Source of the DNA: a virus
Length of the DNA stretch: 55,230 nucleotides
IMG/VR virus record: IMGVR_UViG_3300031555_001876
Strand: one strand, 5' to 3'
Shown: in pieces, positions 33,229 to 33,960 of the stretch
How positions within the stretch are numbered: the first letter of the stretch is position 1
Layout of the letters: each line of letters starts with the position of its first letter
Translations under genes and position numbers: made by a program
The notes under the pieces: model-generated
The model's database searches: none
The model's input: only the letters and a program-made list of their open reading frames with translations
Told to the model about the DNA's origin: nothing

Positions 33229-33296
33229 TTTGTTGGTCAATGATAAGCAATCTTCTCATTTTATTTTTGATAAAAATAAAAAGGAGAAGATTGCTT

Positions 33297-33959
33297 ATGG
33301 GTTTTATTTATAAAATAAAAAATAATATAAATAATAAATTATATATTGGAAAAACAGAACGCTCTATCGAAGAAAGATGGAATGAACATTGTCGTCACGC
33401 TTCTTTATATCCAAACATTCCTTTATATAGAGCAATGTTAAAATATGGAAAAAATAATTTTTCAATTATTTTGCTTGAAGAATGTGATAATTAGATAATT
33501 GATGAAAGAGAAATCTATTGGATAAACTATTATAATACATATATGGGTGATGGATATAATTGCACTGGTGGAGGCGAAGGTGGAATTAAACCAATTTCTT
33601 AGGATGAAATTGAGATAATTGCCAAAAGATATTTAAATGGAGAGCGATTAGATCTTTTATGTAAAGAATTTCATCATCGTTATCCAAAAGTTAGAGAAGC
33701 ATTAATTTAGTATGGAGTTGAAATAAAAACATTCGCGGGGCCAGAATCTCAAAGAAAAAAAATTGTAGCAATCAATCCCCAAACAAATAAAATCGAATTT
33801 ATTTTTAATTCAGTAACAGAAGCAGGAGAAGTTTTACATAAACCAGGAACAAAACCTTCAAATACTTCTAAAAATATAGGAAGCGTTTTAGGTAAAAATA
33901 ATATTAGATATGGATATAGATGGAGATTATATCAAGAAGGCGATATTATAGGAGATTAA
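33297..33959 (+). CDS. GIY-YIG homing endonuclease that uses recoded TAG.
   Basis: Motif GFIYKIKNNINNKLYIGKT...ERWNEH. ATG 33297 follows AAAAGGAGAAG. Three in-frame TAGs (33492, about 33597, about 33705) are needed to reach TAA at 33957-33959. The C-terminal segment KPGTKPSNTSKNIGS is DNA-binding-like. Confidence 0.65.
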
Positions 33960-33960
33960 T

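Follow-up and report, generated by a model that had tools for sequence, protein, structure and literature searches.

The DNA analysed here, called the window throughout, is a 55,230-nt stretch of a phage genome (IMG/VR record IMGVR_UViG_3300031555_001876), and it carries a homing endonuclease gene (HEG) of the GIY-YIG type directly behind a nucleotidyltransferase (NTase) gene. The phage is TAG-recoded, with TAG read as glutamine, and the HEG contains three in-frame TAG codons (ambers), across all of which its whole 220-codon frame is under purifying selection. Taken as a whole, it is likely that this is an intact, free-standing, I-TevI-like HEG of a TAG→Gln phage that homes and is expressed with delay. 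The identity, integrity, and mobility of the gene are very probable, and the timing part, that its expression is delayed and dependent on suppression, stands at about an even chance. Loci and contigs compared with the window carry L-numbers, and P0001 denotes a protein 95% identical to the product of the window HEG.

Identity and integrity of the homing endonuclease gene

By its sequence, the gene belongs with the I-TevI-like GIY-YIG homing endonucleases and, among these, with the free-standing (Seg-like) ones. Pfam places the GIY-YIG domain (PF01541) on residues 1-83 (E 1.5e-10; 41.7 bits, cut-off 22.6), the alignment to PHROG 314, 'homing endonuclease', takes in residues 1-214 and with them the three TAGs, and the family profile finds the catalytic domain of I-TevI (1mk0/1ln0) with an E of 3e-13. 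Tyr5, Tyr16, Arg27, His31, Glu72, and Asn88 are invariant in 112-113 homologues. An AlphaFold2 model made of P0001 has a predicted local distance difference test score (pLDDT) of 90 and aligns with 1mk0 by Foldseek with a template modelling (TM) score of 0.82, a root-mean-square deviation of 2.1, and 33% identity. In this model, a GIY-YIG module (residues 1-90) is followed by a Gly-rich linker (91-101), a three-helix module (102-139), and a beta-beta-alpha-alpha-beta module (156-211), with flexible linkers joining the three modules and high pLDDT in the last two.

A preliminary description of this DNA had proposed a free-standing GIY-YIG HEG, situated between an NTase gene and a Prs/PncA cluster, that needs three TAG read-throughs to yield a protein of about 220 amino acids (aa). 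The Pfam, PHROG 314, and I-TevI profile matches and the lack of an intron bear this out, as do the TAGs at codons 66, 102, and 138. The flanks are also as claimed, with an NTP_transf_2 gene upstream and, downstream in this order, a 68-aa open reading frame (ORF), a Pribosyltran protein, and an Isochorismatase (PncA-like) protein. The start had to be moved, however. The earlier one, at 33240, was the first ATG of the longest read-through ORF and lies 57 nt too early; the real ATG is at 33297, because all homologues open with M[GA][YF]IYKI, the sequence AAGGAG precedes this ATG, and 33243-33298 is a non-coding hairpin. Translation of 33240-33962 shows no in-frame TAA or TGA between the start and the terminal TAA.

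Full-length homologues are much longer than the product that would end at the first TAG. The 387 homologues of the HEG include a best 120 of 169-258 aa, mostly 209-233 aa, and members of the family in IMG/VR are mostly uninterrupted ORFs of 205-225 aa. The preliminary description had reasoned that homologues full-length at about 64 aa would make this copy a truncated pseudogene; with homologues of 206-225 aa, the copy is no pseudogene. Since TAG 1 precedes the catalytic Glu72 and Asn88, an active enzyme requires read-through, and a 65-aa product terminated at TAG 1 would, judging from the sequence, be inactive.

The view that the gene nevertheless ends at TAG 1 and that the remainder is decaying draws on two observations. 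The JGI annotation of an identical contig (3300032167, Ga0224413_10019707) calls a 65-aa GIY-YIG fragment (L086 10876-11073, equivalent to window 33297-33494), and no suppressor tRNA was found in the window. The 65-aa stub is an artefact, because the standard code was used, and ENA-derived gene calls give the 220-aa protein. Downstream of TAG 1, the ratio of non-synonymous to synonymous change (dN/dS) is 0.14 against L001 (14.5 synonymous and 8.5 non-synonymous differences) and 0.11 against L005, which has 79% amino acid identity and synonymous sites near saturation (proportions of synonymous and non-synonymous differences, pS 0.62 and pN 0.13); the overall range for the ORF is 0.11-0.17. The 154 codons downstream of TAG 1 hold no TAA or TGA, all three TAGs recur in copies of 95% identity from four further assemblies (L001-L004), and essential genes of the same genome need three to seven TAG read-throughs. 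A pseudogene was therefore rejected as exceedingly unlikely on the grounds of this selection, the profile match reaching residue 214, and the CAA codons with which TAG alternates among orthologues. Decayed copies with in-frame TAA do occur in the family (L023, codon 64; L067, codon 61).

Recoding of the phage

The window is TAG-recoded, because the portal, the large terminase (TerL), a PHROG 3314 protein, and a sigma-like gene fit their profiles only with three to seven read-throughs each (Table 1). The amino acid concerned can be read from the HEG itself. Seven HEG orthologues of at least 65% identity, for which the DNA was recovered, were compared for TAG columns; ten different columns were found, and at five of them (codons 29, 66, 102, 113, and 208) another orthologue has CAA, which is direct evidence that TAG stands for Gln. 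At the column of TAG 3, Gln is the commonest residue across the wider family. The window TerL is 44% identical to that of phAss-1, and the phAss-1 group has been inferred to read TAG as Gln by means of phage tRNA-Sup(CUA) genes (PMC10607447).

A fifteenth tRNA of the window, missed by ARAGORN, was recovered with Rfam at 45547-45618 (+) (33.4 bits, anticodon CAU, Met or Ile2 type), inside the tRNA array at 43257-50549. The suppressor tRNA gene may lie outside the window, as relatives are 164-176 kb long and the window covers about one third of a genome of probably 165-175 kb. On six other recoded contigs (L017, L024, L052, L053, L069, and L078), tRNA(CUA) genes stand beside homologous HEGs. The relatives in question, L101-L104, are GTDB contigs of 164-176 kb whose TerL is 74-79% identical to that of the window; they were binned with Mollicutes, Acutalibacteraceae, and Muribaculaceae and are most likely mis-binned phage genomes, giving no consistent host.

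Two further genes of the window were noted for their ambers. A 211-aa ORF at 22068-22703 (−) is the most amber-recoded gene in the window, with seven in-frame TAGs making up 70% of its Gln codons. Pfam gives it a below-cut-off match (E 8.5e-05) to an HTH_36/LexA-like winged-helix motif; the ORF lies just upstream of a TAG-poor plus-strand block in the opposite orientation, and is called by JGI as a 75-aa fragment only (L086 1-159). Its product may be a regulator that can be made only under suppression. For the sigma-like gene (6173-7099), a start further upstream is probable, at a TTG that follows GGGAGG, with a fourth TAG (7100-7355, −).

Insertion site and flanking identity

Comparison with related phages, as the preliminary description had suggested, revealed presence and absence of the HEG at exactly this site. 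In L001-L004 the order is NTase, HEG, and an 89-aa gene, and the HEG-less L089/L090 (NTase identity 79%) and L091-L094 (74%) have only a 1-nt spacer between the NTase stop and the 89-aa gene. In L085 (NTase 60%), a Metallophos-type gene directly follows the NTase and there is no HEG. NTase homologues number 4947 at E≤1e-30. In nucleotide alignments, the empty site (L089, L091) reads CATGAAATC joined to GTAGGAGGTTAATATG, and the occupied site (L001) reads TATGAAAT, then GAGATAAG at the left edge of the insert, the HEG, GGCGATATT at the right edge, and again GTAGGAGGTTAATATG.

The cassette entered 12-13 nt ahead of the NTase stop, and its boundaries are ambiguous by a few nucleotides owing to a short GA(A/T)AT microhomology. 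Insertion gave the NTase a new stop, and the HEG took over the old last codons and stop together with the ribosome-binding site (RBS) and ATG of the next gene. Accordingly, the empty-site NTase ends in ...EIVGG on GTAGGAGGTTAATATG, the L001 HEG ends in ...DIVGG on the same 16 nt, and the window HEG ends in ...DIIGD. Homology between the window and L001 ends right after the ATG of the next gene, and the 68-aa ORF that follows in the window is not homologous to the 89-aa gene found after the site in relatives. No paralogous HEG copy was detected by tblastn of the window, and megablast of 32000-37000 against INPHARED phages gave no match, so no close sequenced relative exists there.

As removal of the insert restores the frame and C-terminal peptide of the empty site, the HEG could be imagined inside a group I intron that is spliced from the NTase mRNA to restore the ...EIVGG terminus, and related proteins are indeed labelled 'group I intron endonuclease' by JGI. 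This possibility was rejected and is scarcely credible. A search of 33100-34260 for Intron_gpI and other ribozymes gave no hit at E≤1, and none came up in the window as a whole at gathering score. The non-coding part of the insert amounts to only about 83 nt, folded as a simple hairpin. A group I intron has to end in G, but a T stands ahead of the 3′ junction, and the NTase gene ends at a new stop codon of its own.

Sequence identity changes sharply along the locus. Between the window and L001 it is 0.76-0.83 at 31889-32800, and L002 is unrelated (0.45-0.60) upstream of 32600. Against L001, L002, and L004, it stands at 0.92-0.94 in the 3′ part of the NTase gene (32801-33228), 0.90-0.91 in the intergenic stretch (33229-33296), and 0.94-0.96 in the HEG ORF, and just past the HEG stop it is 0.49, the random level. 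Against the HEG-less L089/L091, the values are 0.76-0.90 upstream, 0.59-0.77 in 32801-33228, and 0.59-0.67 over the final 230 bp of the NTase. HEG-positive genomes therefore have in common, at 92-96%, the cassette and about 430 bp of left flank, with distal flanks that are about 80% identical or unrelated; the left-flank breakpoints differ among them (L001 versus L002), and in no pair compared is the HEG less conserved than the NTase. As a pattern, this gradient is consistent with homing and co-conversion of the left flank, and it agrees with a target at the 3′ end of the NTase gene or close by, which would be altered in carrier genomes.

The association of the two genes reaches far beyond these close relatives. 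In L095, L096, L097, and L007-L011, a HEG 50-75% identical to that of the window directly follows an NTase homologue of 50-68% identity, and because this linkage holds down to about 50% NTase identity, the NTase 3′ end appears to be an old, long-standing homing site. The preliminary description had marked the locus as a likely recent insertion point, which applies to the exchange of the cassette and its left flank among relatives, and not to the site, which is old.

Such long residence would also be explained if the endonuclease had been domesticated as a weapon that excludes or degrades co-infecting relatives lacking the cassette (marker exclusion), and the strong purifying selection and the marker exclusion mediated by T4 seg and mob genes (PMC2988022) agree with this. 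HEG-less relatives with clean empty sites are common, however, and the decayed copies with in-frame TAA, L023 and L067, point to the gain-and-loss cycle of a selfish element, so that domestication is unlikely, though it and the selfish view are not mutually exclusive.

Related phages also carry GIY-YIG endonucleases at other sites. One of these, noted at L089 12635-12819, is a 265-aa, NUMOD1-containing enzyme, and the window has none there.

Ambers across the family

Members of the family were found at 79 IMG/VR loci, 75 of which were scanned for in-frame stops. The count of TAGs in HEG homologues, another check put forward at the outset, showed that most of the 75 have no in-frame stop and that about 17 carry one to five in-frame TAGs. 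TAG read-through increases the long-ORF coverage of the contigs that hold the TAG-bearing copies, and many TAG-free members are on contigs whose ORF density is unchanged by it; TAG-free copies also occur on the clearly recoded contigs L097, L052, and L053. In a neighbour-joining tree, TAG-bearing copies fall into at least ten separate lineages, each beside TAG-free copies and mostly with different columns. Among the close orthologues, in window numbering, the ambers are at codons 66, 102, and 138 in the window and L001, 48 and 138 in L005, 34, 102, and 208 in L095, 113, 168, and 208 in L099, and 29, 62, 113, and 168 in L100, with none in L098.

These distributions indicate that ambers are gained and lost in place by CAA↔TAG changes, that is, by in situ adaptation and not as one co-evolved lineage, and that the family crosses code boundaries over evolutionary time. 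The proposal that the element co-evolved with, or spread only among, TAG-recoded phages can accordingly apply at most to this sub-clade, and it is too strong for a family with many TAG-free members and so many separate TAG lineages. An amber-bearing copy would presumably not work in a phage with the standard code, and its onward spread would thereby be limited.

Several family members lie in tRNA arrays, and in L052 (9766-10684) and L078 (9764-10630), both recoded IMG/VR contigs, a member is immediately downstream of a tRNA(CUA) gene. Other stop codons were also observed. L047 has an in-frame TGA at codon 78, possibly reflecting TGA recoding or decay, and L082/L084 are copies without in-frame TGA on strongly TGA-recoded contigs (long-ORF coverage rising from 0.44 to 0.88).

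Putative signals for expression control

The region ahead of the HEG is predicted to form an RNA hairpin (Table 1) whose 3′ arm holds the GAG of the Shine-Dalgarno sequence (33284-33286) and the A and U of the AUG. All four substitutions between the window and L001 within the hairpin form two compensatory pairs (C:G→U:A and U:A→C:G), and in L002 both of these positions are mismatched. In L005, L095, L099, and L100 the hairpin sequence is a different one, yet the Shine-Dalgarno sequence and/or the AUG is again covered, and RNAalifold reports compensatory changes at 5 of 23 pairs. A U-rich run stands 3 nt past the stem.

No sigma-70-like promoter was found for the HEG, and no convincing motif is common to the hairpin region and the regions upstream of TAG-rich genes. 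As the cassette is without a recognisable promoter and lies within a block of sigma-A-like promoters, its transcription would come by read-through, for which the nearest upstream promoter, ahead of the NTase gene, is the likely source.

Use of the reassigned codon differs between the HEG and its surroundings. TAG makes up three of the six Gln codons in the HEG and 3 of 89 in the surrounding plus-strand block of 17 genes of at least 100 aa (Fisher p 0.0027, the numbers being small); in the packaging block the figure is 25 of 87, which does not differ significantly from the HEG (Fisher p 0.36). The TAG-rich packaging operon is also preceded by a good sigma-A-like promoter, TTGACA-17-TGTGATAAAAT (7100-7355, −), and 'late' genes may be transcribed by the host polymerase and gated at translation.

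It is possible, though improbable, that the gene is functional and its TAGs have no regulatory role, being products of neutral CAA↔TAG drift, open to any gene that can wait for suppression to begin, so that the ambers would mirror a relaxed constraint on timing, with the hairpin acting mainly as an attenuator, terminator, or processing site of the upstream operon. Fast positional turnover of the ambers, with ten columns in seven sequences and none used in L098, speaks for this, as do the absence of TAG from L096 and L097, the latter on a recoded contig, a TAG share in the HEG with no statistical difference from the packaging genes, the U-rich run after the hairpin, and the failure to find an internal promoter. 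Yet the surrounding 17 genes nearly avoid TAG, so TAG is not neutral everywhere, and the 3′ arm of the hairpin always lies over the Shine-Dalgarno sequence and/or the AUG even where its sequence has changed, which a pure terminator would not need.

At the other extreme, the ambers and start-site hairpin could be a selected two-key lock that admits expression only late in infection and, at the same time, a code firewall that restricts homing to phages reading TAG as Gln. This is doubtful. If it were true, ambers as such and not their sites would be selected, because orthologues keep two to four ambers while the positions turn over; selection for amber number is speculation, given shares of 18/43 in HEG orthologues and 25/87 in packaging genes.

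Proposed explanation and its weighing

The favoured explanation is that of a selfish, homing HEG with delayed expression. In a mixed infection, the enzyme would bind through its putative C-terminal helix-rich modules and cut the NTase 3′ end, or DNA close to it, in an allele that lacks the HEG, and recombinational repair from a HEG-positive genome would copy the cassette and adjacent flank. The carrier genome would be protected by its divergent NTase 3′ end and interrupted site. The HEG would be transcribed by read-through with the TAG-poor, presumably early genes served by sigma-A-like promoters, and the hairpin and ambers would keep the nuclease from being made before amber suppression sets in, presumably at a late stage.

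Several points weigh against this explanation or parts of it. The 55-kb window, in which ARAGORN predicted 14 tRNAs and Rfam one more, yielded no tRNA(CUA), and no tRNAs were found near TerL in relatives. The cleavage site and activity are putative ones. A Pfam scan for GIY-YIG and NUMOD domains, as suggested in the preliminary description, found the former and no NUMOD at E≤1, and the C-terminal modules are putatively DNA-binding on the strength of a predicted fold and weak helix-turn-helix (HTH)-type matches, the only fold matches that these modules gave. With its U-rich run, the hairpin could instead or also be a weak terminator. No sigma-70-like promoter was recognised inside it, unlike the T4 cases, where a late or middle promoter in the hairpin yields late transcripts unable to fold in this way; this is weak evidence as the phage's own late consensus may differ. 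Because the packaging operon has a sigma-A-like promoter, the terms 'early' and 'late' rest on TAG usage and the literature. Finally, the TAG share in HEG orthologues (18/43, from non-independent sequences) is not clearly above that of the packaging genes (25/87).

With these reservations, the locus is a clean example of how mobile selfish genes in recoded phages take on the code of the phage through simple CAA↔TAG changes, and of how standard-code annotation turns such genes into false fragments, here the 65-aa stub. Being compact, at about 730 bp, and having known empty sites among its close relatives, the locus also offers a test bed for recoding as a possible timer and for the limits that a shared code may set on the horizontal spread of mobile elements.

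Features of the window

The features discussed above are collected in Table 1.

Table 1. Positions of the homing endonuclease gene, its cassette, and related features in the 55,230-nt window
Feature	Position	Strand	Evidence and remarks
Portal gene	1226-2623	−	Six TAGs; PHROG match over most or all of the length only with TAG read-through
Large terminase (TerL) gene	3220-4962	−	Seven TAGs; PHROG match over most or all of the length only with read-through
PHROG 3314 protein gene	4962-6170	−	Six TAGs; profile match over most or all of the length only with read-through
Sigma-like gene	6173-7099	−	Three TAGs; profile match over most or all of the length only with read-through
Nearest upstream sigma-70/sigma-A-like promoter	31560-31588	+	Consensus scan 10/12; TTGATT-17-TATAAT with TG, extended −10; likely source of transcripts through the NTase gene into the HEG
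NTase (NTP_transf_2) gene	32395-33228	+	Pfam E 3.5e-05; PHROG 388; 3′ end is the apparent homing site
Co-conversion-like tract, 3′ half of NTase gene	32801-33228	+	Identity gradient
HEG cassette, about 733 bp	33214-33946	+	Insert relative to the empty site of relatives
RNA hairpin, 15-bp outer and 10-bp inner stem	33243-33298	+	Minimum free energy −26.9 kcal/mol, z −6.9
Shine-Dalgarno sequence AAGGAG	33281-33286	+	10 nt ahead of the ATG; conserved in the upstream-region alignment
HEG ORF	33297-33959	+	220 codons and TAA (33957-33959); Pfam, PHROG, I-TevI profile
TAG 1, codon 66	33492-33494	+	TAG in L001; GAA in L005 and L095; CAA in L096
TAG 2, codon 102, start of three-helix domain	33600-33602	+	TAG in L001 and L095; CAA in L005 and L096
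TAG 3, codon 138	33708-33710	+	TAG in L001 and L005; other sense codons elsewhere
Junction ATAGGAGATTAATATG	33948-33963	+	HEG last codons and stop (the original NTase end), RBS and ATG of the next gene
68-aa ORF, PHROG 2773, function unknown	33961-34167	+	Start-coupled to the HEG stop
Next sigma-A-like promoter	34207-34235	+	Consensus scan

Around and beyond the HEG, an intergenic element of about 65 bp is repeated, comprising a GC-rich terminator hairpin and then TTGATTTTTTATAAAAA..TATGATATAATAT, a sigma-A-like promoter with extended −10. It was found at 30235-30295, 31531-31588, 34207-34235, 35130-35225, and 36618-36706, and further on at 38330-38800 (three copies), 39215-39505, and 40230-40370; it precedes many plus-strand TAG-poor genes and recurs in L086, L089, and L091. 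Between the three copies, within 38335-38800, the stretch 38419-38479 (+) is a partial match to YrlA, a Y RNA-like family (E 4.5e-06; 36.7 bits, short of the gathering score, 69). It corresponds to a permuted tRNA-like module, with the T-arm and acceptor 3′ half followed by the acceptor 5′ half and D-arm, and could be a phage Y-RNA-like or tRNA-like small RNA.

Inside the tRNA array, just before tail-fibre-like genes, two paralogues flank a radical S-adenosylmethionine (SAM) enzyme (PHROG 1802), the trio occupying 46977-47687, 47691-48974, and 49000-49758 (+). The N-terminal halves of the paralogues are extremely rich in Cys, Gly, and Thr, with CxxxC-type repeats over about 130 aa, and the trio may be a peptide or protein modification module.

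Comparison with known systems

I-TevI, encoded in the td intron of T4 (1mk0/1ln0), has the same catalytic fold as the window HEG, and all catalytic residues match. The modular plan seen in the model appears alike as well, with a catalytic domain, a flexible linker, and a C-terminal helix-containing DNA-binding region, putative in the window HEG, although the zinc finger, minor-groove helix, and HTH of I-TevI have no sequence match in its C-terminal modules. An RBS hairpin on read-through transcripts is also known for I-TevI (PMC2988022). I-TevI is intron-encoded, whereas the window HEG is free-standing, carries three ambers, and has no recognisable late promoter in its hairpin.

Among free-standing enzymes, T4 SegB/SegG and Aeh1 MobE are similar in being promoter-less cassettes between or at the end of conserved genes, in their presence or absence among relatives, and in flank co-conversion. 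RBS hairpins have been described for T4 I-TevI/II/III, segB, and Aeh1 mobE, and free-standing HEGs are known to co-convert their flanks (PMC2988022); the window HEG resembles segB and mobE in its hairpin and the Seg and MobE systems in a target that is probably in the neighbouring gene (PMC2988022). T4 segB is located in tRNA arrays, as are many homologues of the window HEG family, and Enterococcus phage homologues of the HEG are annotated 'SegB'. The window HEG differs from the T4 Seg and Aeh1 MobE cassettes in being fused to the last codons of the invaded gene and in belonging to a TAG-recoded gut phage, with a TerL related to those of Enterococcus, Geobacillus, and phAss-1-type phages; its ambers would add a second, code-dependent layer of control.

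For the code itself, the comparison is with phAss-1/'Phassvirus' and related gut phages, which likewise show TAG→Gln recoding in TerL, portal, and other virion genes and a recoding pattern that varies between orthologous ORFs, as here (PMC10607447). Three genes for tRNA-Sup(CUA) are present in phAss-1, against none found in the window, and recoded homing endonucleases are not described in the phAss-1 paper (PMC10607447).

A recoded endonuclease has been described in the Agate phages, where Borges et al. reported a preferentially recoded group I intron endonuclease among early genes that uses the reassigned stop above its neighbours and predicted a late nuclease (bioRxiv 10.1101/2021.08.26.457843). 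The window HEG likewise uses the reassigned codon above its neighbours (3/6 versus 3/89). The study of Borges et al. reportedly appeared later in Nat Microbiol in 2022. The Agate endonuclease is intron-encoded with TGA→Trp, and the window HEG is a free-standing GIY-YIG cassette with TAG→Gln that adds evidence of selection, amber turnover, exact insertion junctions, and the RBS hairpin. Recoded homing endonucleases, RBS hairpins, and co-conversion have all been described previously and the locus reveals no new mechanism; the window HEG is the TAG→Gln, free-standing counterpart of a known recoded HEG, with a better-resolved anatomy.

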